A stretch of 64,000 nucleotides of DNA. Source: an uncultured Spirochaetota bacterium. Lineage in GTDB: Bacteria; Spirochaetota; Brevinematia; Brevinematales; JAOACQ01. Location of the stretch: the NCBI GenBank assembly GCA_963783575.1, contig CAWAOD010000003.1, positions 1 to 64,000 of the forward strand, given 5' to 3'. The notes beneath the pieces were generated by a model. The model made no database searches. It saw only the letters and a list, made by a program, of their open reading frames with translations, and was not told where the DNA came from. A program made the position numbers and the translations under genes. Below are positions 28,094 through 44,403 of this stretch, in pieces; the first letter of the stretch is position 1, and each line of letters begins with the position of its first letter.

Positions 28094-28377
28094 ATAATTT
28101 GGCGAGCAGAAGCGCCTTTAACAAAATCAAATTACATAATGTTTTCAATAATCATATCGTTATAGAAAAAGGCTTTACCCTGCTTAATCAGGTTTATATA
28201 TTTGTTATAGCAAAATTACTTTTAACCTAGTTGTATCAACCGATTGAAATCAGAGATAAAAAGCGATTTTCAATCTTTTTTTTGCTCTATTTATTACATT
28301 AGATTATAATTTTTTAATGTAAGTTTATCCGGCATTTGCGAATTAGAAGCGGTGATGTTTTTAATGGGGGCGTAAAT

Positions 28378-30078
28378 ATGCGGATCAATTCAATAACGAC
28401 AAAGATAGTTTTAATTGTGGTTACCATAATAACTTTAACTATGACAATATTGGGTATTATTGATTTTTTAGGTGAAAGATCAAGACTATATAAATTGTTA
28501 AATGATAAATCCAAAATACTTCCTTTAAGGGCTTCCATCACATTAGCCGATCCTTTCTGGAATATTGACATACCGTTAATCAAACAATTAACTTCCTTTG
28601 ATATGACTGATGATGAGATATATGCCATTATTATCGCGGATAAGAATGGAAAAGTTTTTTATCAGGTAAAAAGGGATAAAGATTGGAAAGCGGTTGAATC
28701 TGAAGTGGAAAAGACTGAAAGGTCCCGGTATCAGCTCATATCTTCCACAGGAGAATTGAAGAACGATAATCAGGTTGTTGGAAAGGTTGAATTCCTGATA
28801 TCAAAAAAATTCCTTAATCAATCTCTGCAGTCTGTTATTATAGGTACAAGTATTAAAACAGTTATTATCTCAATTCTAATCATATTTTTAATGATTATTA
28901 TTCTGGACAGAATTTTGATCGTACATATAAAAGAGCTGGGATTAAAGTTCAAGGAAATGTCAGAAGGAGAAGGTGACTTAACAAAGAGGCTTGAAATAAA
29001 ATCCGCTGATGAGATCAGCCAGCTTGCCGGCCATTTTAATAAGTTCATTGTCACACTAAATGGTATTATCAGGGATGTTAAAACATCAGTCAAAGATACA
29101 TACAATGTTAGTGATGAATTAACAAATATTACAGCAAATTCAACTTCGGCGGTGATAGAAATATCATCTGGTATTAAGTCCATTACCAACCAGATAAAAA
29201 ACCTGGATATTAATATTGAAAACTCATCAAAGAAATCAGACCAGATAATGTCCATATCAAATACAATGGAAGAACGTGTAACACGGCAGAGGCAAAGCCT
29301 GGAAGTATTCTCCTTATCAATAGATAAAATGGTTCAATCCATTTCAAAAATCGCTGCGACAATAGAAAGCATTCAGAAATCTTCGGAAATGCTGATAGAT
29401 TTATCAAAAGTCGGCGACACAAACATTCAATCAACAAATATCAATATTGATAAGGTGTCATCTGATGTTAAAAGTATCCTTGAAATCATTCAGGTCCTGG
29501 ATGATATATCCAGCCAGACAGGCATTTTATCACTTAACGCATCGATTCAGGCTGCCCATGCCGGCGGCTTCGGAACCGGTTTTGCGGTTGTTGCACATGA
29601 AATTCGTGAACTGGCTACTTCAACCAAAGAAAAGTCAGAAGAAATACAAAAGTTCATCAAATCTATCGTAAATCTTATTCAGGTCGCTTCTGATTCCAGT
29701 ATTAAAAGTAAAGATTCTTTCGGGAAAATTTACTCCGAACTTAATAATTTTATAGCGTCTTTACAAAATATTTATATGTCAATCAGGGAAATAAAAAAAG
29801 AAAGCGATGAAACCAAAAATACAATTAATATGTTGAATACATTAACATACGGTGTTAATGACATTTCAAATGAATCAATCGGAAGCGCAAGGGATATCAC
29901 TGAAATAATGAAGAACGGTATTTTGATATCAAAGGAAGTTAACAGTGCTATCGGTGAAATAGATATCAACAGTAAAAACATTACCAGCGGTATGCAGCAT
30001 GTTCTTGACCTCAATGTTAATACAAAAAACAGCCTTGAAAACCTTCTTAAGCAGATAGAAAAGTTTAAGATTGAATAA
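28378..30078 (+). CDS. Methyl-accepting chemotaxis protein (2 TM, HAMP, signalling domain)
   Basis: GEGDLTKRL..DEISQLAGHFN HAMP; QTGILSLNASIQAAHAG..GFAVVAHEIRELA. Confidence 0.92.
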   Translation: MRINSITTKIVLIVVTIITLTMTILGIIDFLGERSRLYKLLNDKSKILPLRASITLADPFWNIDIPLIKQLTSFDMTDDEIYAIIIADKNGKVFYQVKRDKDWKAVESEVEKTERSRYQLISSTGELKNDNQVVGKVEFLISKKFLNQSLQSVIIGTSIKTVIISILIIFLMIIILDRILIVHIKELGLKFKEMSEGEGDLTKRLEIKSADEISQLAGHFNKFIVTLNGIIRDVKTSVKDTYNVSDELTNITANSTSAVIEISSGIKSITNQIKNLDINIENSSKKSDQIMSISNTMEERVTRQRQSLEVFSLSIDKMVQSISKIAATIESIQKSSEMLIDLSKVGDTNIQSTNINIDKVSSDVKSILEIIQVLDDISSQTGILSLNASIQAAHAGGFGTGFAVVAHEIRELATSTKEKSEEIQKFIKSIVNLIQVASDSSIKSKDSFGKIYSELNNFIASLQNIYMSIREIKKESDETKNTINMLNTLTYGVNDISNESIGSARDITEIMKNGILISKEVNSAIGEIDINSKNITSGMQHVLDLNVNTKNSLENLLKQIEKFKIE

Positions 30079-31531: not shown

Positions 31532-32506
31532 ATGAAGGTTATAATTAAATCTCTTATTATAATTTATTTTCTTTCCTTAAGTTGCTGCACATCGCAACAA
31601 AAAGTGTACCATGTGGGTATTCTTTGCGGCGCGGCTTTTTTCAACGGAATAACTGAAGGCTTTAAGGAAAAAATGACCGAGCTGGGTTATGTTGAAGGTA
31701 CGAACATAATTTATGACATATACAATGCTATGGCTCCGGTTGGGAACCAGGACGTCATTAAAAAATTCATAGCTGAAAAGGTAGATTTAATTGTCGTTTA
31801 TCCCACAGAGGCATCAATAGAGGCAAAATCAGCTGTTCAGGGTTCAGGTATTCCAGTGGTTTTTGTCAATGCTTTTACCGAAGATACCGGCCTTGTTAAC
31901 AGCATCCGGGAGCCGGGCGGGAACATCACTGGCGTGAGATGGCCTGGTCCTGATGGAGTAGTTCAGCATTTTGAAATCATGCGTGAGATTTTGCCAAAAA
32001 TCAAGAGTATATTGACACCATCACAGAAAGATTATCCTATCACAAAAAGTCAGCTGGATGTCTTGCGAATGGCGTGTAAAAACGCTGACTTGAAATTGAT
32101 TGAGATGCCTGTCAATAATATCATAGGGCTTCAAGCGGGACTTAAAGAACTGGCCCGTTCTAACACTATTCCCGATGTAATATTTACCATAGCAGACCCC
32201 ATCTGTGTGATGCCTGACTCATATATTACTATAGCCAAATTCGCGGATGAACATAAAATTCCGGTTACCGGCGGTTATGTATCATTAGGAAATTATGGTT
32301 CAATTTTTGTTTATATACCCGAATCCGTACCCCAGGGAAAACAGGCTGCGTTTCTGGCCGACAAGATATTAAAAGGAACGCCAGCGGGGACCATCCCGGT
32401 CATCTCTGCCGAGAGTTATCTGAAGATTAATTACAAGGTCGTTAAAAAATTGGGATTGAAGGTTCCTGAAGACTTGTTAAGCAGGGCCGATGAGATAATA
32501 AAATAG
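31532..32506 (+). CDS. ABC-type substrate-binding lipoprotein (ABC_sub_bind family), orphan
   Basis: Lipobox-like LSCC; GFKEKMTELGYVEG, GLVNSIREPGGNITGV, KILKGTPAGTIPV, LLSRADEII. Confidence 0.85.
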   Translation: MKVIIKSLIIIYFLSLSCCTSQQKVYHVGILCGAAFFNGITEGFKEKMTELGYVEGTNIIYDIYNAMAPVGNQDVIKKFIAEKVDLIVVYPTEASIEAKSAVQGSGIPVVFVNAFTEDTGLVNSIREPGGNITGVRWPGPDGVVQHFEIMREILPKIKSILTPSQKDYPITKSQLDVLRMACKNADLKLIEMPVNNIIGLQAGLKELARSNTIPDVIFTIADPICVMPDSYITIAKFADEHKIPVTGGYVSLGNYGSIFVYIPESVPQGKQAAFLADKILKGTPAGTIPVISAESYLKINYKVVKKLGLKVPEDLLSRADEIIK

Positions 32507-32533: not shown

Positions 32534-33315
32534 ATGACTAAATCTATTGATGTATCTGTAAGTATAATTTCTACGAATGAACGGCATTACATTGAAAAAC
32601 TTCTTCCTACTCTATATGATGCGGCAGATGGGATTTCTATGGAGGTAATTTTAATTGACAATAACTCCGACGATCATCTTGAGGAATTGAAAAATAAGGG
32701 TTATCCGAATCTCTATATTATACGAAATTTAAAAAGATTGGGGTTTTGTAAAAATCATAATATCGGTATTGAGAATTCAAATGGCCGGTATATTTTAGTT
32801 TTAAATCCGGACATACTTTTCGAAAAAGGAGAATCCTGTATAGCGAAAATGGTTCAATTTATGGATAGTCATGGTAATCATGCGGTGTCAGCGGATGCCG
32901 GGAATATAATTTTCAAAAAAAATTTGCTTATCCTGCTAGAAGATTTCTTAATTTTCATACGATACTGGTCCGCCGTTTACCCCAATTATTTTATTCGGAA
33001 AAAGTAATGATTAGTTTTTTTTATAAAGACCGGGATATCTATAGTACTTTTGAATGTGACTGGCTGCATGGCTGTTTCCTCTTTTTCAAGAAGGATGCCG
33101 TAAAACAAATCGGCGGATTTGATACGGGTTATCAAAAATATTTTGAAGATGTGGATGTCTGCAACCGTATCCATAAGGCAGGCTGGGATGTTTGCTTTTA
33201 TGGAAACACATATTATTATCACCTTGAACAGAGGGCAAGTAAGAAATTATTTTCTAAAGATGCAATTTTACATATACAAAGCTATTTAAGATGGATTAAA
33301 AAACGTGACGCTTAA
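32534..33315 (+). CDS. Glycosyltransferase family 2 (one frameshift near 32878)
   Basis: LIDNNSDD, GFCKNHNIG, LNPD; bridging frame CGVSGC..YPARRF joins to DWLHGCFL, GGFD..YFEDVDVC. Confidence 0.85.
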
Positions 33316-33344
33316 CCCAAGAACTACCTGGGGCAAGCGGCTTG

Positions 33345-35197
33345 TTAGTTAACCGGGAGAGATATTATAAACCTGCAGCCGTTCTTTTTTAAATTCTCTA
33401 CCTTGATATTTCCATTATACTTTGTGATAATACCGTATGATACCGATAAACCTAAGCCAAGATTGTCTTTACTGCCTTTTTTTGTTGAATAAAATGGCAG
33501 GAATATATCATTGATATTTTCCAGTTCTGATTCCTTTTCCTGTATCCTGGAAAATGATTTCAATTTCATTCTTATCAATTGCCTTAATGAGGTTAGTCTG
33601 AATGGTTAGAGACCCTCCTTCCGGCATGGCTTCAAAGCTGTTTTTTATTAAATTGAGCATAACCTGGCGGATTTCGGTTTTATTTGTTTTAATTCTCAGC
33701 GGATCGGCTTTTTTAATGTGATTCAGGGTTATATTTCTGTGGATGGCGTCATGTCCTGACGAGAGAAATCATATTATCCAGTAATTCATTGATATCTACA
33801 GCCTCGGATATGTCCGATTTATTGCTGCTGAAGGATATCAAGTTACTGATTATATGCTTAATAGACCCTATTTCCTCCTCCAGATTTTGAACTGTCTCAA
33901 TCAAATTACTATTTTTCATTTTGATTTTTAAATAGTCGAGGTAATTATAGATAATTTCAAGAGGGTTATTAATTTCATGGGCTACTCCAGCCGCGAGTAA
34001 TCCGATGGATGCCAGTTTTTCCGAGAGTATTACTTTTTCACGGAGCTTTTCCTGTTCCGTTACATCCTCTACAATAATCATATTTCCAATATCAATAAAA
34101 CCGTCGCTCAGCGGATAGGTAATTATATTGGTTTTATAAATAAAATTCTCCAGCCTGATAGGCTGGTTGATAAAAGTTTCTTTAATATTCTTTTGAACGG
34201 CGGTTTCTATTAATTTTAGTATCTGTCTATTTTCTTTATTGAATAATCTTTCAATAGGCATATCGATGGAGAATGTCTGTTCTATTTTAAAAAATTCTTT
34301 GGCATAATCATTCATCAGTTTTATTTTATTATTTTTATCAATAACAATCAGGTTGGCAGGGAAAGTTTCCAGAATTGCCTGATTGTATTTTAAAAGCTGG
34401 TAGAATTCCTCATTGTTTTCTTTAAATCTTTCTTCCTGGTTGATTTGAGTATAAGCCAGGCGGATAATGTTGATTTTATCTATATTTTTTATTGAATCGG
34501 TTACTAAAACCTCTCCGTTTCTAATAATAGTAACACGGTCGGCTAATTCAAAAAGCTTATCTATACTATGGGAAATAAACAGGATTGATAAGCCTTCATC
34601 CTTAAGTTTCTGAAGCAGCGTAATGATTCTTCTCAAATGAAACTCCGTCAGCTTTTCCAGAACCTCATCCAGTATCAGCAATTTCGGTTCCGTGAAAATA
34701 TTTCTCAGGATGTCAATAAGCACCGTTTCAGGAATCGACAGGTTCATAACGAGAGTTTCGGAATTATAGTCAAAACCGCATTTTTTTAAAAATTCATTAA
34801 CCTGTTCAACTATTATGGATTTATTTTTCAGTAAAATATTCGGGTTTAATTTTTTATTGTAAATCAGGAAATTATTAGCAATGGATAAATGTTTGCATAG
34901 CTGTGTGTGCTGCATTACCATCTGAATCCCTAATTTTTGGGCCATTTTCCTGGGGAAATAACCGCAAGACTTTTTATCCCATAAAATATTCCCTGACTGG
35001 GGAAATAGAAAACCGCTTAAGACTAAGCCCAGAGTAGATTTTCCAGAAGCATGTTCACCGACGACCGCATGGATTTCAGAAGGATAGAGCTCAAATGAAA
35101 TATTCTTCAGCGCTGAAACAGCGCCATATTTGACATTTATTCCATCCAGAACCATTAATGGCGTTTTTTTATTTGTTTCTGTCAATTGGTATGCCAT
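33345..35197 (-). CDS. Histidine kinase with N-terminal sugar-ABC ATPase-like domain and PAS domain (two +1 frameshifts, ~33753 and ~33530)
   Basis: HAVVGEHASGKSTL, LLILDE, FISHS, LADRVTIIRNG; PAS; AHEINNP; restored frame gives QVMLNLIKNSFEAMPEGG, DTGKGI, PFYSTK, GLGLS. Confidence 0.88.
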
Positions 35198-36527
35198 ATT
35201 TTTCCAGCTTGTTATAAAGAGTCGCCCTACTCATTGATAAAATACCGGCTGTTTTTTTCTTATTAAACCCGGTCTCATCTAAGGTTTTCAAAAGAAGTTT
35301 TTTTTCAATTCTTTCCCTGACATTACTTTCCGTATTGCTAATTTTATCGTTAATTATATATGCAGGCAAATTTTCAAGCTCGATCTTATCCTCATCGGAA
35401 ACGGCGAGCGCATATTGAACAAAATTCTTCAATTCCCTTACATTTCCAGGCCAATCATAATCTAAAAAAATTTTTTTTACTTCTTCTTTAATTTCAATAT
35501 CTGTTTTATTCTTTTCTTTTTTAAATTCATGAATAAAATAATTAACCAGTAAAACAATATCTTCTTTTCTATCCCGCAGTGATGGTATGTTTAATACGGC
35601 GGAATTTAATCGGTAAAACAGGTCTTCCCTGAAAGTTTTATTTTCGATTAATGTTTTTAAATTTTTATTTGTCGCTGTTATAAAACGGACATCGACTTTT
35701 ATATTTTCTTTTCCTCCCAATCTCCTGATTTCATGGTTCTGTATGGTGCGTAGTATTTTAGCCTGGATGGATAATGGCATATCACCCAGTTCGTCTAAAA
35801 ACAAAGTGCTGCCGTCTGCCTGTTCAAATACACCTTTATAAGTATTATTAGCGCCTGTAAACGCGCCTTTATCATGACCGAACAGTTCATTATCAAGGAG
35901 AGATTCGGGAAAAGATGCGCAGTTTATTTTTATCATTTCTTTATATGCCCTTGAGGAATTGGCATGAATAAAGTCGGCCAATACTTCTTTTCCTGTGCCG
36001 CTTTCCCCCGTAATCAGAATAGGCAGATCGGATTCAGCGATTTTAGCTGCCTTTTTACAGATATTTTTCATATCAATGTTATCTGTAATGATAGTTGAAG
36101 AATAATCGATAATCCTTTTTTTTAATTGACTGTTCTCGTTTTCTAATTTTTTTACCCGGGTCGCGTTTTCAACAACTGTCAATAATTTTTCGAATTTAAC
36201 AGGTTTATTAAGGTAATCGTATGCCCCCAGTTTTATGGATGTAACTGCTGTTTCAATAGTTCCATAACCTGTAAGCATTATAACCGGTGTTTTCTTTATT
36301 TCTATTAACTTTTGCAGTACATCAATACCGTTTTCCGATCCCAGTTTAACATCAAGAATTACCGCATAATAATTATTTTTTTTATAGTGTGATAAAGCAT
36401 CCTGACCATTCAAAGCATATGAAACCATGTATCCCCTTTCGATAAAACTCTGCCGAAGGCTTGCGCATAGCTTTTCGTTGTCATCGATTATAAGAATTGG
36501 TATCTTTTGTGTATGATTATTTGACAT
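35169..36527 (-). CDS. Sigma-54-dependent response regulator (NtrC/AtoC family)
   Basis: REC (IIDD, LDVKL, KP), GESGTGKE, GAFTGA, FLDE, WPGNVREL, Fis-type HTH; overlaps the kinase start. Confidence 0.95.
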   Translation of the reverse strand: MSNNHTQKIPILIIDDNEKLCASLRQSFIERGYMVSYALNGQDALSHYKKNNYYAVILDVKLGSENGIDVLQKLIEIKKTPVIMLTGYGTIETAVTSIKLGAYDYLNKPVKFEKLLTVVENATRVKKLENENSQLKKRIIDYSSTIITDNIDMKNICKKAAKIAESDLPILITGESGTGKEVLADFIHANSSRAYKEMIKINCASFPESLLDNELFGHDKGAFTGANNTYKGVFEQADGSTLFLDELGDMPLSIQAKILRTIQNHEIRRLGGKENIKVDVRFITATNKNLKTLIENKTFREDLFYRLNSAVLNIPSLRDRKEDIVLLVNYFIHEFKKEKNKTDIEIKEEVKKIFLDYDWPGNVRELKNFVQYALAVSDEDKIELENLPAYIINDKISNTESNVRERIEKKLLLKTLDETGFNKKKTAGILSMSRATLYNKLEKYGIPIDRNK

Positions 36528-36665
36528 AGGCTAAAACCCCAGTGTTTAATTATTGTACACTTTTATTATTTTGTCAAGCTTAATTCATTGAATAATTCTT
36601 TTTATAAATATCTATTCTATTATCAATTATATAAATAATTAATATTATAAATAAAACCTGGTATA

Positions 36666-36681
36666 TGGCATAAATATTGCG
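36666..36681 (+). promoter_or_regulatory. Sigma-54 (-24/-12) promoter motif pointing at the rbsACB-like operon
   Basis: TGGCATAAATATTGCG: GG-N10-GC spacing, close to TGGCAC-N5-TTGC consensus; next to a sigma-54 activator gene. Confidence 0.7.
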
Positions 36682-36912
36682 AATCTCATCCAAATGTATT
36701 GTTATTTTGAATGAAGCTCTGGCAACATTCACTAATATTTAATCCATTGTCAATTCTATAATAACCTTCTAAGAACAGGGAAAAGGGTATTTTCAGCACA
36801 CTATTTAATATATAATTGAGCTACCCAACGCTATAAGGAATGAAAGCAGAATTTGAAAATAATTATACGATAATAATATTTATCACTAAATAAAATATCC
36901 CTAAAAAAACTA

Positions 36913-36958
36913 TTGACAATCGGAAGCTCATGATATAAAATAATGTAAGCGCTTAACA
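36913..36958 (+). promoter_or_regulatory. Sigma-70 promoter with LacI-type operator for the rbsACB-like operon
   Basis: TTGACA 36913, 17 bp, TAAAAT 36936, TGTAAGCGCTTAACA 36944-36958. Confidence 0.8.
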
Positions 36959-37017
36959 TAATAGGTTTATTATCCAACTGAGTATAAAAATAAGATTATT
37001 CGGAGGAAGCAAAGGCT

Positions 37018-38513
37018 GTGGAACAGTTATTGATAAAAGTTGAAGATATTGTAAAGGAGTTTCCCGGTGTTACGGCTTTGTATAAAATGAATATGGATCT
37101 CCGGAAGGGGGAAGTTCATGCCATTGTCGGTGAAAACGGAGCCGGTAAATCGACGCTTATGAAAATATTAGGCGGCGTTTATCAGCCTGATGAAGGCAGG
37201 ATCTTTTACAAGGGTAATGAGACAAAGATTGAAGGCCCTCATGATGCTCAAAAGAAAGGGATCAGTATTATTTATCAGGAATTAAACCTAGCGCCCCATT
37301 TGACTGTTGCGCAGAATATTTTTCTTGGCAGGGAACCTGTTTTTTATGGCGGAGTGCTTAATAAAAACAGGCAAAATGAACAGGCTGTGAAGATTTTGAA
37401 ATCACTTAATTTAGATATTGATCCCGATACAATTGTGAAAGATCTTGGAGTCTCAAAGCAGCAGATGGTTGAAATTGCCAAGGCTTTATCAATTAAATCG
37501 GAAATCCTGATAATGGATGAACCCACATCCGCTTTAAGCGAATCTGAAATAGATGAATTATTTAAGGTTATCCATAACCTTAGAAACGAGGGTGTCGGAA
37601 TATTTTATATTTCACACCGTCTTGAAGAATTAAAGCATATTGTAGACCGGATAAGTATAATGAGAGACGGTAAATTGATTGGGACTTATGATTATGGAAC
37701 ATTGACGCTTGATAGTATTATTGCAAAAATGGTCGGCAGGGAATTAAAGGATAAATTTCCAGCCAGAGATATCAGTTTAGGAGAAAAAGTCCTGGAAGTT
37801 AAAAATCTGTCCAGGAAAGGTGTTCTGGAAGATATCAGCTTTTCATTAAATAAAGGAGAAATATTTGGGAGTAGCCGGATTAATGGGCTCCGGGAGGACA
37901 GAGCTGGCGAGGGCTTTGTTTGGTGCCGATAAGATCGATCATGGTAAGATTTATATTGACAGAAAAGAAGTCTCTATCAAAAGCCCGAGGGGTGCCATTA
38001 AAGAATACATAGGATTTATCACTGAAGATAGAAAAAAAGACGGATTGGCTTTAACCCTTCAGGTTGATGATAATATAGTTTTAGCCAGTGTGAAAAATGT
38101 ATCAAACGCATTGGGTATTGTATTGGATGGGAAAAAAAGGAAAGTCGCTGAAAAATTTGTTTCTGACTTAAAAATAAAAACTCCCAGCCTGCAGCAGAAA
38201 GTAAATAAGCTGAGCGGAGGAAACCAGCAGAAAGTTGTCCTGGCAAAATGGCTTAGCAGGAAAACAAAAATCCTGATTATGGACGAACCAACCCGCGGTA
38301 TTGATGTCGGAGCCAAGTTCGAGGTTCATGAATTAATGAATTCCCTGGTTAGAGAAGGAATGTGTATCATTATGATATCTTCCGAATTACCTGAAATTCT
38401 CGGGATGAGTGATAGAATTCTTGGTATTGCATGACGGCAGGGTTTTCGGAATATTAGATAAAAATGAGGCAACTCAGGAGAAGATTCTGAGTCTGGCTAC
38501 CGGTTTAGTATAA
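37018..38513 (+). CDS. CUT2 monosaccharide ABC transporter ATP-binding protein, RbsA-like (two +1 frameshifts, ~37864 and ~38423)
   Basis: GENGAGKST, MDEPTSAL, ISHRL; GLMGSGRTE, EDRKKDGL, LSGGNQQK, DEPTRGIDVGAK; restored tail VLHDGR..ATQEKILSLATGLV*. Confidence 0.9.
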
Positions 38514-38536
38514 AATAATTAAGAGGTAATGTTGAT

Positions 38537-39520
38537 ATGAGTCCAAATGAATTAACGAAAAAAGAGGCCGTTACTCCAAAAAAAGCTGTTTTTAAAGGGA
38601 ATTTCCTGGAGCAAATAGGGCCATTTGCGGCGCTGATAATAATGTTTATTGTTTTTTCAATCATTTCCAATCATTTCTTTACCCTGCCGAATCTTTTAAC
38701 GGTCGCTTTGCAGACAAGTATTATCGCTTTTATTGGCATCGGTGTTACATTCTGCATTATCACAGCTGGGATAGATTTGAGCATCGGTTCCGTCCTTGCT
38801 TTCAGCAGTGTATGCGGCGGCCTGGCCATGAAAGCCGGCATTCCTGTGCCTATCGCTGTTTTATTAGCTTTATTAGTAGGAATGGCTTGCGGTTTATTCA
38901 ATGGTTTTATCATCACGAAAGGGCATCTTCCCCCTTTTATCGCAACCCTTGGAATGATGTCGATCGCAAGAGGCGCCGGGCTTTTTATCACGAATGCCGC
39001 TCCGATTATGGGTTTTCCCAATTCCTTCGAATTTCTGGGAGGAAGGATTTATAACATCATTCCTGTACCTGTAATTATAATGATCATTGTCGCGTTGATA
39101 TTCGGTTTTATACTGACAAAAACAAGGCTCGGTCTTTATGCCTATGCGATTGGATCTAATGAAGAGGCTGCGAGACTATCCGGTATCAATATAGACCTGG
39201 TTAAGTTCTCGGTCTACGCAATATCCGGAATTCTTGCCGCAGTAGCGGGAATAGTGCTTGCATCCCGTCTTGCCACCGCACAGGCAACAGCTGGTGTAGC
39301 GTATGAACTGGATGCGATAGCGGCCGCCGTTATCGGCGGGACCAGTTTGATGGGAGGAGTTGGCACCATAACAGGTACCCTGATCGGGGCTTTTATTATC
39401 GGAATTATGAGAAACGGTTTAAATATGATGGGTGTTTCCAACTTTATTCAGCAAATGATTATAGGACTTGTTATTATTGGTGCGGTTTATATCGATCAAT
39501 TAAGGAATAGAAAAAAATAA
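38537..39520 (+). CDS. CUT2 ABC transporter permease, RbsC-like
   Basis: GIDLSIGS, PPFIATLGM, YAIGSNEEAARLSGI, YELDAIAAAVIGG. Confidence 0.93.
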   Translation: MSPNELTKKEAVTPKKAVFKGNFLEQIGPFAALIIMFIVFSIISNHFFTLPNLLTVALQTSIIAFIGIGVTFCIITAGIDLSIGSVLAFSSVCGGLAMKAGIPVPIAVLLALLVGMACGLFNGFIITKGHLPPFIATLGMMSIARGAGLFITNAAPIMGFPNSFEFLGGRIYNIIPVPVIIMIIVALIFGFILTKTRLGLYAYAIGSNEEAARLSGINIDLVKFSVYAISGILAAVAGIVLASRLATAQATAGVAYELDAIAAAVIGGTSLMGGVGTITGTLIGAFIIGIMRNGLNMMGVSNFIQQMIIGLVIIGAVYIDQLRNRKK

Positions 39521-39558
39521 AAAACTGTTTTAAACAGTAATAAATAAGGAGGAAAACT

Positions 39559-40518
39559 ATGGTTAAGTTCTTTAAGGGAAAGAACTGGTTAGTCAGTCTT
39601 GCTGTCGCTGCTGTGTTTAGTTTTGTGTGCGCGATTCTATATGCCGAAGATGTTGCAGTAATTGTGAAAACCGCTAATTCAGATTACTGGCAGGTGGTCA
39701 ACAAAGGAGCTATGCAGGCTTCTAAGGATTTCGGCTTTACGTTTACCTATGATGGCCCGTCTGCCGAAACCGCTATTAATGAAGAAGTATCATTGGTAGA
39801 AAACGCGATCAACAGAAAGGTTAAAGCGATTGTACTGGCTCCTTCTGATCCGCAGGGATTGGTATCTGTCGTGAAAGCTGCAGTTGCTGCTAAAATCACT
39901 ATAATCGGAATAGACTCGGCTCTTGCCGACAATAATCTTTTCGATGCCTTCCTGACAACCGATAATGTCGCGGCAGGTAAAAAAGCGGCCGATGAATTGA
40001 TCAAAAGGATGGGAAAGACTGGAAAAGTGGCTTTAATGCTTTATGTTGCCGGCGCAGGCAGCTGTGTTGACAGACAAAAAGGATTTACCGATGAAATTAA
40101 GAAAATGGCGCCTGGAATCAAAATTGTTGGACCTTACTATTCCGATGCAGATTCCGCAAAAGCTTTGAATCAGATGACTGATGTTTTAGCATCCAACCCC
40201 GACCTCAAAGGCGTATTCGCTGCTAATGAACCGACCGCTATCGGCGTAGGCCGTGCTATCCAGGAACAAGGCAAAGCCGGAAAGCTGGTTGCAATCGGTT
40301 TTGACGGAACTCCGCAGTTACAGGAATTTGTCAAGAGCGGCGTTTATCAGGCTATTATGGTTCAGAGTCCTTTTAATATGGGATACCTGGGCTTACAGGC
40401 TGCTATGGACAAGGTAAAAGGAAAAACTATTAAGAAATTCATTGACACCGGAGTATTTTCAGTAACAACAGAAAATATTGCTTCTGATGAAGCTCAGAAA
40501 GCATTGGGCAACAAATAA
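39559..40518 (+). CDS. CUT2 ABC transporter substrate-binding protein, RbsB-like
   Basis: Signal peptide; IVKTANSDYW, TDNVAAG, FAANE, GFDG, QSPFNMGY, IDTG. Confidence 0.92.
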   Translation: MVKFFKGKNWLVSLAVAAVFSFVCAILYAEDVAVIVKTANSDYWQVVNKGAMQASKDFGFTFTYDGPSAETAINEEVSLVENAINRKVKAIVLAPSDPQGLVSVVKAAVAAKITIIGIDSALADNNLFDAFLTTDNVAAGKKAADELIKRMGKTGKVALMLYVAGAGSCVDRQKGFTDEIKKMAPGIKIVGPYYSDADSAKALNQMTDVLASNPDLKGVFAANEPTAIGVGRAIQEQGKAGKLVAIGFDGTPQLQEFVKSGVYQAIMVQSPFNMGYLGLQAAMDKVKGKTIKKFIDTGVFSVTTENIASDEAQKALGNK

Positions 40519-40564
40519 AAGGAAAGTAGTTTAAAACTAATTGTGAAAATTAGTTTGGGCAAAA

Positions 40565-40599
40565 GGTCTGTGTAATAGCACTAGTCTATTACACAGACC
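40565..40599. terminator. Hairpin between convergent rbsB-like and lacI genes (probable terminator)
   Basis: GGTCTGTGTAATAG-N7-CTATTACACAGACC 14 bp perfect stem; T-run follows on the minus strand. Confidence 0.7.
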
Positions 40600-40708
40600 G
40601 GATAATAAAATTGAAAAGAAAATTTGGTTTTCTAAGAAATGTTAAATGAAAAATTCATATAAAGCAAGTTTTTACTTTGATTTAATGAGGATCAATCCAC
40701 AAGGTAAT

Positions 40709-41743
40709 TTATCCCTTTGTGGATTTTCTGGTTACGAGTGAACAGGAGATTTTTATCTGCTTCTGTTGAATGGGTTTACCTTCAATCAGCTGCATCAAAA
40801 TATTAAAAGCCATTGAGGCTATGGTTTCAACATGCTGATCGACGGTCGTCAGAGGCGTCTTGAAATACCGAAGATATTTGTTATTACCATAACCCGCCGT
40901 CATGATATCTTCAGGGACATTGATTTTATACTCATCCAGAGCTTCCAGGATTCCCATGGAAACATAGTCGTTAACCCCAATGACGGCGTCAATGGATTTT
41001 ATTTTACCGCTCTGTATCAAATTGCTGGTCACTTTATATCCATCTTCCTGAAAATAACTGCTTTCTAAAATCAGGCTGTCATCCATTAGGATTCCTTTTT
41101 CATTATATGCCTTCCGATATCCCTCAATTCTTTCTATGCTAACGCTGGTTTCCCTGCTTCCAGCAATAAAAGCGATTCTTTTCGCCCCTTTGTCTAAAAT
41201 ATGGCTGACTAATTGATAAGAGCCGTCTACATCGTCCGTTGTTACACAATTAAAATTCTTATTATTTTTAAAATAACGGTCGACAAGGACCAGAGGAATT
41301 TTTTGCTTTTGTATGTTTTCAAGAAATTCTATGTTTTCATCATTCATGGCGGGAGCGAGTATAATACCGTTAACCCTTCGTGAAATCATAGTTTCCAGGG
41401 CTTTTCTTTCAGCATGGGTATCCTCGTAACTATGGGATAAAAAAATGCTGTAATTCATGTCCACCGCTCTTTTACTGACTTCATAACAGAGTTCATTGAA
41501 AAAAAGCTGCATGATATCTGGAATAATCAGGCCGATAGCCATGCTATTCCGAAGGGAAAGTGCTTTCGCGGCAAAATTCGGGACATAACCCAATTCTTTA
41601 GAGGCCGCTAATACTTCATCCTTTGTCTTTTTACTGATGGGTATTCCCTTCTGATCTATGCCATTTAATACCCTTGAAACGGTTGCAATGCTTTTTCCCG
41701 TTTTTTTGGCGATATCCTCGATTGTGGGATATTGTTTAATCAT
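40709..41743 (-). CDS. LacI-family transcriptional regulator
   Basis: TIEDIAKKTGKSIATVSRVLN, LGYVPNFAAKAL, PLTTVDQ, LVTRKST. Confidence 0.93.
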   Translation of the reverse strand: MIKQYPTIEDIAKKTGKSIATVSRVLNGIDQKGIPISKKTKDEVLAASKELGYVPNFAAKALSLRNSMAIGLIIPDIMQLFFNELCYEVSKRAVDMNYSIFLSHSYEDTHAERKALETMISRRVNGIILAPAMNDENIEFLENIQKQKIPLVLVDRYFKNNKNFNCVTTDDVDGSYQLVSHILDKGAKRIAFIAGSRETSVSIERIEGYRKAYNEKGILMDDSLILESSYFQEDGYKVTSNLIQSGKIKSIDAVIGVNDYVSMGILEALDEYKINVPEDIMTAGYGNNKYLRYFKTPLTTVDQHVETIASMAFNILMQLIEGKPIQQKQIKISCSLVTRKSTKG

Positions 41744-41773
41744 AATATTATTCCTTTTCTTTTCATTTGTTAA

Positions 41774-41794
41774 TATTAAACGTTTACTATTATA
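41774..41794 (-). promoter_or_regulatory. -10 box and probable autoregulatory LacI operator
   Basis: Minus strand TATAAT-AGTAAACGTTTAATA, similar to GTAAACGCTTAACA at 9875. Confidence 0.6.
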
Positions 41795-41926
41795 AAATTT
41801 CATTTTGAAATAAACAAGTTTTTCATGTTCTAGGAACTTAAAAAGGGGGCGGTAAAACCTTCTTTTATTTCCTTGACAGAATATTGTAAAAATAATTATA
41901 ATATTGAATAATTACCGGAGAGTTTC

Positions 41927-44403
41927 ATGCTATCAAAAACTGCTGCTATCATAAACACTATTCACCGTAAGAAAAAGAGTTTAGAAAAAAAAGAGACACA
42001 AACCCTTGAATCCAGTAATTTTAATAACAACTGGCCGACTTATATCGGCTTTTTTCTTATATCGATGGCGGTTCTTTCTTACGAAGTTGTAATCAACCGG
42101 ATGTTTGCCTTCACTTACTGGTATCATTTTGCCTTTATGATTATATCCATAGCGCTTTTTGGAATCGGATTCGGCGGTCTGCTGGTTTATTTTACAAACA
42201 AGTTTTTAAAAGACAATATGCCGATAGTCCTTACAATGCTATCGCTTGGTATGGCCGTTTCTTTTCCTCTGGTACTTCTAAAAGTCAACACCATCCCGTT
42301 GATAATGGACCAATTAGGAAAAGACCCGGTACAGGATCAGTTTTTTATTCAGATCTTTTTGACAATGTCTATCCCATTTATTTTTTCCGGTTTTATCTTC
42401 TCATTTGTATTTACAAATTTTAAAAAAGATATCAACCGGATATATTTCTTCGACCTTCTTGGCGGAGGAGTGGGCTGCATATTCGCGTTAATCATTTTCG
42501 AGGGCCGCGGTCCTCTTTTAACGTCATTCATCCTGTCCATTCTTGTCATTGTAGCGGCAGCCGCTTTTGCTTTCAAACAGAGCAAAATTCTTGCTCTAAT
42601 TCTCATACCTGTGGTATCATTCGGAATGTTGTATTACGTTTTTCCCCAAATCCAGAATACAGATATCCGCCTGGCTAAGGGTTTCCAGGTTGTCGAAATT
42701 GATAAATCTGGCAAGGGAGAAAAATTAATGAGCATTTATGGAAAACGAGTCTATTCCTACTGGGATAATTTCGCTTTTGTCGCTGTCCACGAAACACAGC
42801 AGGGAGTGTCTCATTCCGTCGATGAAGACGGCGAGGGAACTTATGCCATTCACGCAGATTACTTCTGTTCGACGCCGCTGATGAAAATCGATAATAACTT
42901 AGACCCGGTTAATTACCAGTTTAAATATTTCTCCGGAACATGATTATCCCTATATTATCAGGAAAAACCCGGAAACAGTCGGGATAATCGGTGTGGGAGG
43001 CGGTAAAGACGTGATACAGGCGCTTGGCCGGGGAGCTAAAGAGGTTTACGGAGCGGAAATCAATAAAACCATATACAACATTTTCTCAAATGTTTACGAT
43101 GATTTACTTGGTAATCTGTCTAAACGCGCAAATGTTCACATTTTTAACGCTGAAGGTCGATTTTTTATCCGCTCATCCGGCAGAAAATATGATGTTATTG
43201 TCTTTGACAATGCCATTTCACAGTTAGCGGTATCAAGCGGAGCTTTTACTCTGGCGGAAAGTTATCTCTATACTCAGGAAGCAATGGAAGATTACATAAA
43301 ACATCTGAAAACAGACGGGGTTATCTATTTTTCAGGCCCAATTACGGATGCAACCCGTTACGCTACAGAATTAAGAGCAGCGTTTCAAAGCCTTCATTTG
43401 AATTTTGATTTCTCCAATTCGATATTTATTGCAGACAATCAATCACGCATATACCAGAAATGCAAGGTTATTGTAAAGAACGGCGCTTTTACCCGGGAAG
43501 AATCCGAAGCGCTCGTCAATCAGGCAAAAAGCGTTCATCATCTGGTCCTTTATGTTCCATATCATGAAAATAAATCGACTGTAGCCCATTTGATTACAAC
43601 TCCCGATATAGAAAGAGAGTACAGGATTAGTACGATAGAAATACGCCCTTCTACTGATGACTGGCCATTTTTTACACAGCGCCTGAAACCGGATATGGAA
43701 AAAGTGAATGACAAAGTTAAAGCCGCAATAAGGTTCCGTCCGGAACCCTTTCTTATGCTCCGGAATGCGACACAACAGGTTTCGGTTTTTGCATGCCTTT
43801 TTCTACTTCTTCCGCTTATCTTTCTTAATCTGAAGGGCTTCTCTGAGCTGAAAAATAAACTAGGATGCATTATTTATTTTGCATCTCTGGGAATGGGCTT
43901 TATGCTTATCGAAGTAGTCCTCATACAGAAGTATCAGCTTGTTCTTGGGCATCCTATTTATGCTTTTTCCATCGTACTGGCAGGACTTTTAATCAGTTCC
44001 GGCGCCGGTAGTCTCTTCTCCGAAAGGTTCAAGGATCCCTATCGGGCTATCCTTACCGGGGTAGCTGGGATAATCGTGGCAACGGCATTATCCTATCTTT
44101 TTTCCAGATTCCTCGCCCCATCAATTGTCGGCTATGCTTTCGGAATCCGGGTTGCTATTATTCTAGCCCTGGCTAGTACAAACGGTTTCTTTATGGGATT
44201 TTTAATGCCTTCGGGTATTCGCGCAGTTTCCAAAGTGGAAGAATCTATTTCCATGGATGTGGGCAATTAACAGTGTTTTTTCAGTATTTGCGAGTTTTCT
44301 ATCGATCTATATCTCAATAATCTTCGGCTTTTCATTTGTGCTTGCAATAGCTGTAGTAATTTATATAATAGGCTCATTGTTCATTATTTTAAGAAGGGTA
44401 TAA
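41927..44403 (+). CDS. Multi-pass membrane protein with central spermidine-synthase-like SAM-binding domain (two +1 frameshifts, ~42938 and ~44250)
   Basis: 7 TM N-part (YFFDLLGG), IIGVGGGKD, AEIN, EGRFFI, YDVI, PSTDDWPFF, TM C-part ending PWMWAINSVFSV. Confidence 0.82.

Follow-up and report, generated by a model that had tools for sequence, protein, structure and literature searches.

What does a histidine kinase sense whose input module is the motor domain of a sugar importer? This question is raised by a locus on contig CAWAOD010000003.1 (assembly GCA_963783575.1) of an uncultured Spirochaetota bacterium, of which positions 1 to 64,000 of the forward strand, called the window in the following, were analyzed. 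A sensor kinase gene was detected here whose product begins with a single ABC-type nucleotide-binding domain (NBD), followed by PAS, HisKA and HATPase_c. It belongs to the same operon as a gene for an NtrC-type activator and is divergent from an rbsACB-like operon for an ABC importer of the CUT2 (ribose/allose) type (Table 1). The circuit may be regarded as a two-component system that switches on this importer. Given the domains of the two proteins and the site between the operons, the kinase would phosphorylate the activator, which in turn would drive the divergent operon from a sigma-54 promoter. As input, the kinase would use one ATP-binding NBD derived from the N-terminal half of a CUT2 ATPase instead of a membrane or periplasmic sensor. 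With a probability of about one half, engagement of the neighboring transporter by this NBD is the best explanation of sensing.

Architecture, family and gene neighborhood of the kinase

In a protein search, 120 matches to the kinase were listed. The closest database protein among them, P0001, is intact, has 617 amino acids (aa) and is 90% identical to the kinase of the window. In the window itself, the longest open reading frame (ORF) of the gene (33749-35197, minus strand, 482 aa) stops right behind HisKA. Pfam analysis of this ORF identified ABC_tran at residues 30-179 (E 6.6e-21) and HisKA at residues 399-459; PAS matches at residues 273-380 of the window copy were weak and below the Pfam cut-offs. 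The NBD covers residues ~13-249 and is single, unlike the two tandem NBDs (~500 aa) that characterize CUT2 ATPases. Nevertheless, the best NCBIfam matches of residues ~10-260 were AlsA, YtfR, GguA, AraG and RbsA (E 1e-36 to 5e-42), all with scores below the cut-offs (the top match, AlsA, reached 144 bits versus a cut-off of 772). For the kinase core (residues 268-616 of P0001), AtoS was the best NCBIfam match (E 1.8e-66, 225 bits versus a cut-off of 646). The histidine kinase boxes (H407; N515 and N519; D551 and G553; F565; G580 and G582) are invariant in alignment A1, which was made from 35 of the 120 listed matches, and the window copy holds all of these residues, spread across three frames. 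A hydropathy scan with a length of 19 residues, performed on P0001 and 120 family members, revealed no membrane segment. The top mean value was 1.41 in P0001 and did not exceed 1.82 in the 120 members, compared to 3.06 in RbsC, and the peaks of the five top-scoring members turned out to be segments of the PAS or NBD core. The initial annotation had described a kinase without transmembrane helix, composed of NBD, PAS, HisKA and HATPase. The lack of the helix, the domains and their order were corroborated, but the protein is not encoded by one open frame because two insertions interrupt it. The motifs that had been reported for the NBD, namely Walker A, Walker B, the H-loop and an altered D-loop, were all found in the translations as quoted. 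The kinase contains GEHASGKST, MQH, LLILDE, ISH and DEVLEKL, the neighboring RbsA GENGAGKST, DEPTSAL and QQMVEIAKAL.

All 120 listed matches have a length of 566-642 aa and contain PF00005, PF00512 and PF02518; thus, the fusion is recurrent. The few members that have been named are labelled 'ATP-binding cassette domain-containing protein' or 'histidine kinase', and the family as such has no name in Pfam or NCBIfam. A1 was also used as a profile to search a library of representatives at 50% identity; the 150 best of them comprised 124 single-stretch full-length matches of 585-646 aa, 24 shorter fragments and two odd cases. Full-length matches continued up to the end of this list (E 1e-103). Judged from the sequence matches, the NBD-kinases form a large family of proteins of ~615 residues, which occur mostly in Spirochaetota and Moduliflexota.

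To study synteny, 80 loci were sampled from one-genome-per-species contigs by use of the NBD-plus-linker alignment A2. As a locus query, P0001 alone retrieved only four ABC ATPases of Exiguobacterium, while the results obtained with the full-length A1 were dominated by generic histidine kinases, with about six true members in 80 loci. According to the record titles, the sample comprises 65 loci of Spirochaetota plus two of Thalassospirochaeta, five of Moduliflexota plus four of KSB3/UASB bins, two of Thermodesulfobacteriota, one of a Bacillota-labelled bin and one that is unplaced. Two further paralogues of the kinase are present in the genome of the window, on contigs C2 and C14. On the other hand, no full-length match was found in 40 class-level relatives of this genome, indicating that the distribution is patchy.

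The ORFs of the loci were classed by blastp against the window's own proteins. A fused NBD-kinase ORF exists in 79 of the 80 loci, the exception (L173) being cut by the end of its contig. A chimeric contig, which would have made the fusion an artifact, is ruled out by this recurrence in independent loci. An NtrC-type gene is located directly upstream, ending at the kinase start, in all 76 loci that could be assessed. Of 47 loci with flanks of 6 kb or more on either side, 44 contain a CUT2 permease and a two-NBD ATPase within 6 kb, and even the three exceptions keep parts of a CUT2 system: a permease and a binding protein (L108), a permease and a split ATPase (L171) or a permease and a single-NBD ATPase (L170). 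The co-occurrence with NtrC and CUT2 genes anticipated by the initial annotation was thereby substantiated. The last-mentioned locus (L170:12458-18054), which belongs to a Desulfobacteraceae bin, encodes, according to Pfam, a binding protein, a permease and a 276-aa single-NBD ATPase; genes for D-lyxose isomerase and an FGGY sugar kinase come next. While the transporter genes are divergent and upstream in most loci, they are found downstream in others. Because gene order and orientation vary, the link between kinase and transporter is not a frozen accident but survives rearrangement. The genome of the window (4.9 Mb) harbors only seven CUT2-like permease genes, and its three kinase paralogues each adjoin one of them. 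Locus L158 (1293-15949) contains two full NBD-kinase/NtrC pairs in back-to-back order, with a separate CUT2 transporter opposite each, and a single Vecturithrix contig carries three such loci (L101, L103 and L107). The existence of paralogues within one cell implies a means of keeping the systems apart.

Related loci were also scanned for sigma-54 sites (TGGCAC-N5-TTGC, at most one mismatch, GG and GC intact; 32 kb in total). Of 68 assessable intergenic regions, 40 contain such a site directed at the transporter, and none contains one directed at the two-component operon. The background of 0.037 sites per kb-strand corresponds to ~1.2 sites expected in 32 kb. In the window, the element upstream of rbsA is the sole site with at most one mismatch in the complete 64 kb, compared to 34 matches if two mismatches are permitted. 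Its distance to rbsA is 340 nt, whereas distances of 36-87 nt are frequent in related loci. The activator has the receiver, the sigma-54 AAA+ domain with GAFTGA and the Fis-type helix-turn-helix of an NtrC-type protein, and its best NCBIfam match was AtoC (E 1.1e-124, 417 bits, below the cut-off of 714). An rpoN gene is encoded in the genome as well. The ntrC gene overlaps the kinase start by 29 nt, and the previously noted arrangement, with a divergent rbsACB-like operon and a sigma-54 motif in between (36666-36680, plus strand), was recovered. The predicted signaling path, leading from the kinase via NtrC to a sigma-54 promoter of the CUT2 operon, is well supported by conservation.

Origin of the nucleotide-binding domain and state of its motifs

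The descent of the NBD was studied by means of a FastTree phylogeny of 258 NBDs, consisting of 82 kinase NBDs, 80 N-terminal halves (N-halves) and 81 C-terminal halves (C-halves) of the neighboring ATPases, those of the window included, and 15 single-NBD proteins. The 82 kinase NBDs and the truncated NBD of L173 constitute one clade (SH-like support 95), which is sister to the 80 CUT2 N-halves (support 97). The kinase NBD of the window is placed inside a 61-member kinase set (support 100) within this clade of 83 rows (support 95). The single clade indicates that the fusion happened once, and it rules out a repeated recent capture of the neighbor's NBD by the kinases. Moreover, the sister position bears out the suggestion that the domain descends from the N-terminal half of an RbsA-type CUT2 ATPase. 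A search for the same NBD on other output domains (Protein Atlas, residues 1-275, kinase families excluded) returned only generic single-NBD clusters.

The ATP-binding motifs of the kinase NBDs have been largely retained. The Walker A Lys and the Walker B Asp are present in 82 of 82 sequences, the Q-loop Gln in 81, the catalytic Glu of Walker B in 80, the aromatic residue of the A-loop in 79 and the H-loop His in 73; in the CUT2 N-halves, each of these residues occurs in 80 of 80. By contrast, motifs of the signature and the D-loop diverged. The last Gln of the signature, found in 76/80 N-halves, is replaced in the kinases by residues of which V (28), T (15), A (11) and H (9 of 82) are the commonest, and the D-loop Pro (79/80 N-halves) by A (36), I (10), T (9) and S (9 of 82). 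The kinase signature still starts with Leu in 77/82 sequences, after which Ser, Asp and Arg are merely the commonest residues (40-46/82), and the D-loop PT was swapped for a sequence with the consensus ALEKL. Hence, neither the N-half signature L-S-x-[AG]-x-Q-Q nor the P-T of the D-loop is found in the kinases. Two further positions separate both groups. Within Walker A, the kinases have GEHG (His in 79/82) and the N-halves GENG (Asn in 80/80). The residue behind the Q-loop Gln, which is Glu in 76/80 N-halves, varies in the kinases (Q21, E16, H14 and N11 of 82). In the 35 sequences of A1, three have Ala at the catalytic Glu and three Arg at the H-loop His, suggesting that hydrolysis is dispensable in some lineages, while the ATP-binding residues never vary. 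Conservation of the NBD equals that of the kinase core, with a mean column identity of 50% in the NBD alignment A3.

A complementary pattern was observed in the C-halves of the CUT2 ATPases (n = 81). Most of them carry Arg (76) at the position of the Walker A Lys, Glu (77) in place of the Q-loop Gln and Ser (79) in place of the H-loop His, whereas the LSGGNQQ signature is invariant (81/81). From this it follows that CUT2 ATPases possess one consensus ATP site, composed of the catalytic residues of the N-half and the signature of the C-half, a property that is probably already known for this family. The kinase NBD has retained exactly the N-half's share of the consensus site and lost its share of the degenerate one. 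On grounds of conservation, the kinase NBD is likely to still bind Mg-ATP. The motif pattern would fit an ATP-binding homodimer with poor hydrolysis, or pairing with a C-half.

Contact with the transporter and competing explanations

How might an NBD of this kind report on the importer? The two NBDs of a kinase dimer may engage the neighboring transporter, most likely at the cytoplasmic face of the permease dimer, where the motor normally sits, or alternatively at the C-half of the ATPase. Changes in transporter state, e.g., a docked sugar-loaded binding protein, would then set the approach of the ATP-loaded NBDs, and their movement would be passed on through the conserved linker helix to PAS and to the DHp/CA core, as in YF1-like kinases. 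A more specific version of this proposal is tentative and, taken as a whole, less likely than not. In it, the ABC importer serves as a transmembrane receptor, and the kinase NBDs replace the motor on a dimer of the CUT2 permease or, in some lineages, perhaps on a dedicated permease paralogue whose gene lies directly behind that of the kinase. Docking of the sugar-loaded binding protein on the outside would close the ATP-loaded, hydrolysis-impaired NBDs and turn the kinase on, whereby external sugar could be sensed without a transmembrane kinase.

The predicted structure is compatible with such a path. An AlphaFold2 model of P0001, based on A1, reached a mean predicted local distance difference test score (pLDDT) of 79.3 and a predicted TM-score of 0.44. 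The NBD was modelled at residues 13-249 with a pLDDT of ~90. The linker (residues 250-271) has low confidence, yet it is among the most conserved stretches, with Y249, Q251, F265, L269, Y271 and N272 being invariant in A1. A helix (residues 261-278) leads to the PAS fold (282-378), which is followed by the DHp helices (380-457) and the catalytic domain. A Foldseek search with the full model did not yield any solved chain spanning both the NBD and the kinase part. Separately, the PAS-DHp-CA part matched the engineered PAS-linked kinase YF1 (4gcz; TM-score 0.64 on the target) and the NBD LptB, MJ1267 and similar chains (TM-scores of 0.8-0.88). In the model, the NBD bears the kinase part at its C-terminal end. 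As this end faces away from the membrane in MalK and MetN, a kinase dimer beneath the permease dimer is geometrically plausible.

Docking on the permease was investigated by complex prediction with one NBD (alignment A3) and two copies of RbsC (alignment A4). Each alignment contained the window and 56 loci, picked from 82 scanned loci because they had a complete match to the NBD and a permease no more than 7 kb away; for A4, a lone permease was replaced by the operon permease in six loci. The prediction received a score of 0.53 compared to 0.00 for the best of three controls, the runs agreed in at least 61% of the contacts, and the pLDDT of the partner was at least 76. The verdict of the tool was 'weak support', a mark that was reached in its calibration by 116 of 157 solved complexes and two of 215 mismatched pairs. 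No PDB chain matched RbsC by sequence; therefore, recall of a solved CUT2 complex is unlikely to be behind the score, even though general ABC architecture is known to complex-prediction models.

Several observations weigh against a contact between NBD and transporter. Scores of 0.60 or less were obtained by just 18 of the 157 solved complexes and by both mismatched pairs that passed. The kinase NBD does not resemble the N-half of its own neighbor more than other N-halves (29.8% versus 29.5% identity), and the identity to the cognate N-half was higher in only 38 of 72 loci. In 61 loci, the distances of NBD, kinase core and NtrC co-vary tightly (Spearman 0.83-0.87), whereas their correlation with the distances of the adjacent permease (0.14-0.21) or ATPase (0.12-0.14) is weak. 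The NBD tracks the permease (0.21) and the ATPase (0.13) no better than NtrC does (0.19). Furthermore, the neighboring ATPases are complete two-NBD proteins, so that there is no obvious vacant site on the permease. Finally, the position after the Q-loop Gln may face the permease, by analogy with other importers, and its variability in the kinases may thus count against an unchanged permease interface. The flat distance correlations suggest that the two-component module re-associated with different CUT2 subfamilies. In that case, any interface between kinase and transporter must be a generic CUT2 one. The initial annotation had put forward that the kinase docks on the transporter and reads its activity. 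Synteny, the retained motifs and the weak complex score speak for this idea; both tests on co-adaptation were flat.

In six loci, a lone CUT2 permease gene is located on the minus strand right behind the kinase gene and convergent to it. Four of them (L096:11835-12902, L110:11842-13014, L111:11820-12902 and L119:8216-9589) belong together, while those of L121 (11819-12781) and L144 (11849-12841) are independent. They thus occur in two lineages, stand apart from the transporter operon and have neither an ATPase nor a binding-protein gene of their own. Compared with the operon permease of their locus, the lone permeases of the first group show 69-74% identity, and they make up an orthologous group of their own (lone versus lone 71-90%, operon versus operon 80-96%). 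For L121 and L144, the corresponding values are 61% (lone versus lone), 76% (operon versus operon) and 46-51% (lone versus operon). The lone permease of L096 terminates a sugar-catabolic operon that has neither its own ATPase gene nor its own binding-protein gene. The lone permeases may be second transporter subunits or permeases kept for docking of the kinase.

Besides engagement of the transporter, it is conceivable, but unlikely, that the kinase is a free cytoplasmic nucleotide sensor. Its NBD would then bind ATP or ADP away from the transporter and dimerize according to the energy charge of the cell, and the importer would be induced only if the cell is able, or is forced, to pay for uptake. 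Such a function would agree with the conservation of the ATP-binding residues, which exceeds that of the rest of the NBD, with the remodelling of signature and D-loop, which form the interface between NBDs, with the lost conservation behind the Q-loop Gln and with the missing sign of co-adaptation to the neighboring transporter. However, it leaves the tie to one ABC subfamily unexplained: the NBD is CUT2-derived, and CUT2 genes stand beside the kinase in 44 of 47 loci and in parts in the other three. For a global signal, several paralogues per genome, each next to its own CUT2 transporter, would be redundant, and the Q-loop Gln, which couples NBDs to membrane domains, would hardly be expected to be kept in 81 of 82 sequences.

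Still less probable, in our opinion, is the ATPase as partner, i.e., pairing of the kinase NBD with the C-terminal NBD of RbsA, by which the kinase would report the ATP cycle and sense true flux. What makes the ATPase a concrete alternative partner is that the kinase NBD has the residues which the N-half contributes to the consensus ATP site of CUT2 proteins. The motifs of kinase NBD and C-half are complementary, the former keeping the Lys, Gln, Asp-Glu and His of the N-half, whereas a homodimer of the kinase would lack a canonical signature. The preservation of the catalytic Glu (80/82) and the His (73/82) also suggests that a complete catalytic site still matters. Yet RbsA carries its N-half and C-half in one chain, which should give its own N-half the advantage over a separate protein, the transporter of L170 has a single-NBD and not a two-NBD ATPase, the distance correlation of NBD and ATPase is just 0.13, and the Ala and Arg substitutions in A1 (three each) indicate that some lineages can dispense with hydrolysis. 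Flux sensing in the strict sense, which the initial annotation had proposed, gained no support over sensing of occupancy or state. Least probable of all is that PAS, e.g., by binding a cytoplasmic sugar metabolite, is the real sensor and the NBD merely an inherited module for ATP-dependent dimerization or stabilization, for although a PAS fold lies between NBD and DHp throughout the family and PAS-linked kinases such as YF1 signal from PAS, the PAS scores of the window are below the Pfam cut-offs, the NBD equals the kinase core in conservation, a LacI-type protein is already available as cytoplasmic sugar sensor here and in 9/80 loci, and the exclusive link to CUT2 would remain unexplained.

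Features of the locus and relation to known systems

Table 1. Positions of genes, domains, frame breaks and candidate control elements in the window.
Feature	Position	Strand	Basis or remark
Sensor kinase gene, NBD-PAS-HisKA-HATPase_c	33345..35197	-	ORFs, Pfam, tblastn with P0001; spans two single-base insertions
N-terminal ABC-type NBD, kinase residues 1-250	34448..35197	-	Pfam ABC_tran, NCBIfam, tree placement
PAS (residues ~273-380) and HisKA/DHp (399-459), up to first frameshift	33749..34381	-	Pfam
HATPase_c catalytic domain, divided over two frames	33345..33768	-	Pfam
First kinase frameshift, extra base, frame -1 to -2	~33754	-	DNA read against P0001, tblastn
Second kinase frameshift, extra base, frame -2 to -3	~33527	-	DNA read against P0001, tblastn
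NtrC-type sigma-54 activator, 452 aa	35169..36527	-	Pfam Response_reg, Sigma54_activat, AAA_lid_14, HTH_8; GAFTGA motif
Sigma-70-like promoter candidate for ntrC-kinase operon, TTGACA-17-AATAAT	36549..36577	-	11/12 positions
Sigma-54 promoter-like element TGGCATAAATATTGC	36666..36680	+	Toward rbsA; at most one mismatch to TGGCAC-N5-TTGC
Second sigma-70-like promoter candidate, 77 nt before rbsA	36913..36941	+	11/12 positions
rbsA-like CUT2 ATPase, two NBDs, three frames	37018..38513	+	Pfam, tblastn
rbsC-like CUT2 permease	38537..39520	+	Pfam BPD_transp_2; NCBIfam ribose permease best, below cut-off
rbsB/alsB-like periplasmic sugar-binding protein	39559..40518	+	Pfam Peripla_BP_4; NCBIfam AlsB, RbsB below cut-offs
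LacI-family regulator, convergent with rbsB	40709..41803	-	Pfam LacI and Peripla_BP_3

According to NCBIfam, the parts of the transporter are nearest to ribose/allose CUT2 systems, with all scores under the curated cut-offs. The gap before rbsA (36680-37017) does not contain a leader RNA detectable by Rfam (no matches in a scan of 33000-41000, E up to 0.1). Two sigma-70-like promoter candidates were identified in addition to the sigma-54 element; they are weak because the region is AT-rich and 27 such sites were found compared to 17.4 expected. Just upstream of the sigma-54 element, at 36582-36653, a 29-nt AT-rich direct repeat exists in two copies (76% identical, 43 nt apart), which are possibly binding sites of the activator or may have arisen by chance in AT-rich DNA. 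The LacI-family regulator may exert a second control of the locus. A LacI-type gene was found in 9/80 related loci, as classed by blast and not by Pfam. The long gap, the second promoter candidate and the LacI gene together hint at dual control. Divergent from the LacI gene, two adjacent genes (41927-42943, 338 aa, and 42993-44270, 425 aa) are located that belong to no Pfam family and showed only faint NCBIfam matches to polyamine aminopropyltransferase (E 0.001 and 0.006). Genes for a methyl-accepting chemotaxis protein (28336-30078) and a separate ABC_sub_bind-type binding protein (31532-32506) are located within a few kb of the kinase.

The kinase gene and rbsA are both interrupted in the window. 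A tblastn search with residues 1-616 of P0001 gave hits in frame -1 (35197 to ~33755; 87% identity ahead of the first shift), frame -2 (33753-33526; 93%) and frame -3 (33527-33348; 95%), and comparison of the DNA with P0001 revealed one extra base at each kinase junction. The ORFs encoding HATPase_c (33508-33768 and 33345-33605) lie outside the main frame, and positions 3-51 and 52-109 of the Pfam HATPase_c profile fall in separate frames. Likewise, rbsA is distributed over frames +1, +2 and +3 with junctions at ~37866 and ~38420; its main ORFs overlap (37018-37932 and 37865-38434) and contain ABC_tran in each. At all four breaks, the order of the frames and the reading of the DNA fit a one-base insertion. 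Elsewhere in the genome, on contigs C5, C7 and C10, four of 26 NtrC-type loci are split over frames. The GT2 glycosyltransferase gene just downstream of the kinase (32534-33315) is divided into two ORFs. The breaks outside the kinase and rbsA suggest an assembly with frequent single-base insertions. Errors of sequencing or assembly are probably the cause of all four frameshifts, because the frames behind the breaks are open and no less similar to the intact homologue than the part ahead of the break and because one-base insertions account for every break. A real, recent inactivation that left a pseudogene pair of kinase and rbsA in this organism only is considerably less likely, and it would be independent of the sensing mechanism. 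It could draw on the clustering of four breaks in ~5 kb, two per gene, and on the split glycosyltransferase gene nearby. It is at odds, though, with downstream frames that are open and 93-95% identical to the intact homologue, with the intact ntrC, rbsC and rbsB, with splits scattered over the genome (4/26 NtrC-type loci) and with the uniform kind of break, which fits a systematic error.

A description of a histidine kinase that uses an ABC NBD for input was not found in the full-text literature, subscription journals and supplements being outside the scope of this search, and the phrase 'ABC-type ATPase domain' was never encountered together with histidine kinases in the literature searched. 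This agrees with the earlier statement that no characterized example is known. In the passages concerned of a paper on domain architectures (PMC2788356), both Pfam names occur just as abundant domains. The closest relatives of the NBD are found in the CUT2 ATPases (TC 3.A.1.2) RbsA, AlsA, AraG, XylG, MglA and YtfR, which have an N-terminal NBD like that of the kinase and share its ATP-site residues. They differ from it by having two NBDs and, in their N-halves, the signature and D-loop that are replaced in the kinase, while the kinase NBD is fused to PAS-HisKA-HATPase_c.

Transporter-coupled sensing itself is known from several systems. Bce modules comprise an intramembrane-sensing kinase with two transmembrane helices, a BceB-type permease with a large extracellular domain and a regulator that is not known to be sigma-54-dependent. 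Neither of the first two features was found here, where the kinase has no transmembrane segment and the permease is of the BPD_transp_2/CUT2 type. BceAB and BceS are separate membrane proteins and belong to a resistance transporter, whereas the locus described here encodes an importer and a soluble kinase with the motor domain in its own polypeptide. What they would have in common is the logic described for BceAB-BceS of Firmicutes, where a kinase without a sensor of its own takes the signal of an ABC transporter and induces the transporter genes (PMC6978683, PMC4513084, PMC10314905). In the PstSCAB-PhoU-PhoR system, an importer reports its state to a kinase without periplasmic sensor, and the contact involves the ATPase PstB (PMC6978683). 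Differences are that the adaptor PhoU is required, that PhoR is membrane-anchored and that no NBD is fused to it. CbrA and CrbS (MxtR) are portrayed, in the part of the source that deals with them, as SSS-family transporter domains fused to PAS-DHp-CA, the partner CbrB of CbrA being a sigma-54-type activator (PMC7918813). They resemble the NBD-kinases in combining a transporter part and a kinase in one polypeptide and, in the case of CbrA/CbrB, in the sigma-54-type partner. Their fused part, however, is the membrane domain of a secondary transporter, connected via STAC, and not a soluble ABC ATPase domain. AtoS and AtoC are the best NCBIfam matches of the kinase core and the regulator, both far under the equivalog cut-offs. 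AtoS is a membrane protein, while the kinase of the window has no transmembrane segment. With MalK and MalT, the NBD of an importer contacts gene regulation, but MalT is a separate one-component activator. In NBDs of the MalK/MetN type, regulatory domains hang from the C-terminal end, away from the membrane, and the NBD is the working subunit; ~400 columns of the P0001 model were aligned by Foldseek to MetN, MalK, FbpC and PotA chains.

The known forms of transporter-coupled sensing (Bce, Pst/PhoU/PhoR, CbrA) thus make use of separate proteins or of a fused membrane domain. Here, a histidine kinase has recruited the motor domain of an ABC importer as its input module, in a family that spans well over a hundred clusters at 50% identity and whose assessable members all stand next to the same kind of importer. 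The finding is a variant of transporter-coupled two-component sensing that apparently has not been studied. If the NBD docks on the transporter, the system would provide a compact, soluble and genetically tractable handle on the signaling of substrate occupancy across the membrane, and a modular design for biosensors composed of binding protein, permease and NBD-kinase. It would also explain how sugar uptake is induced in many spirochaetes and Moduliflexota.

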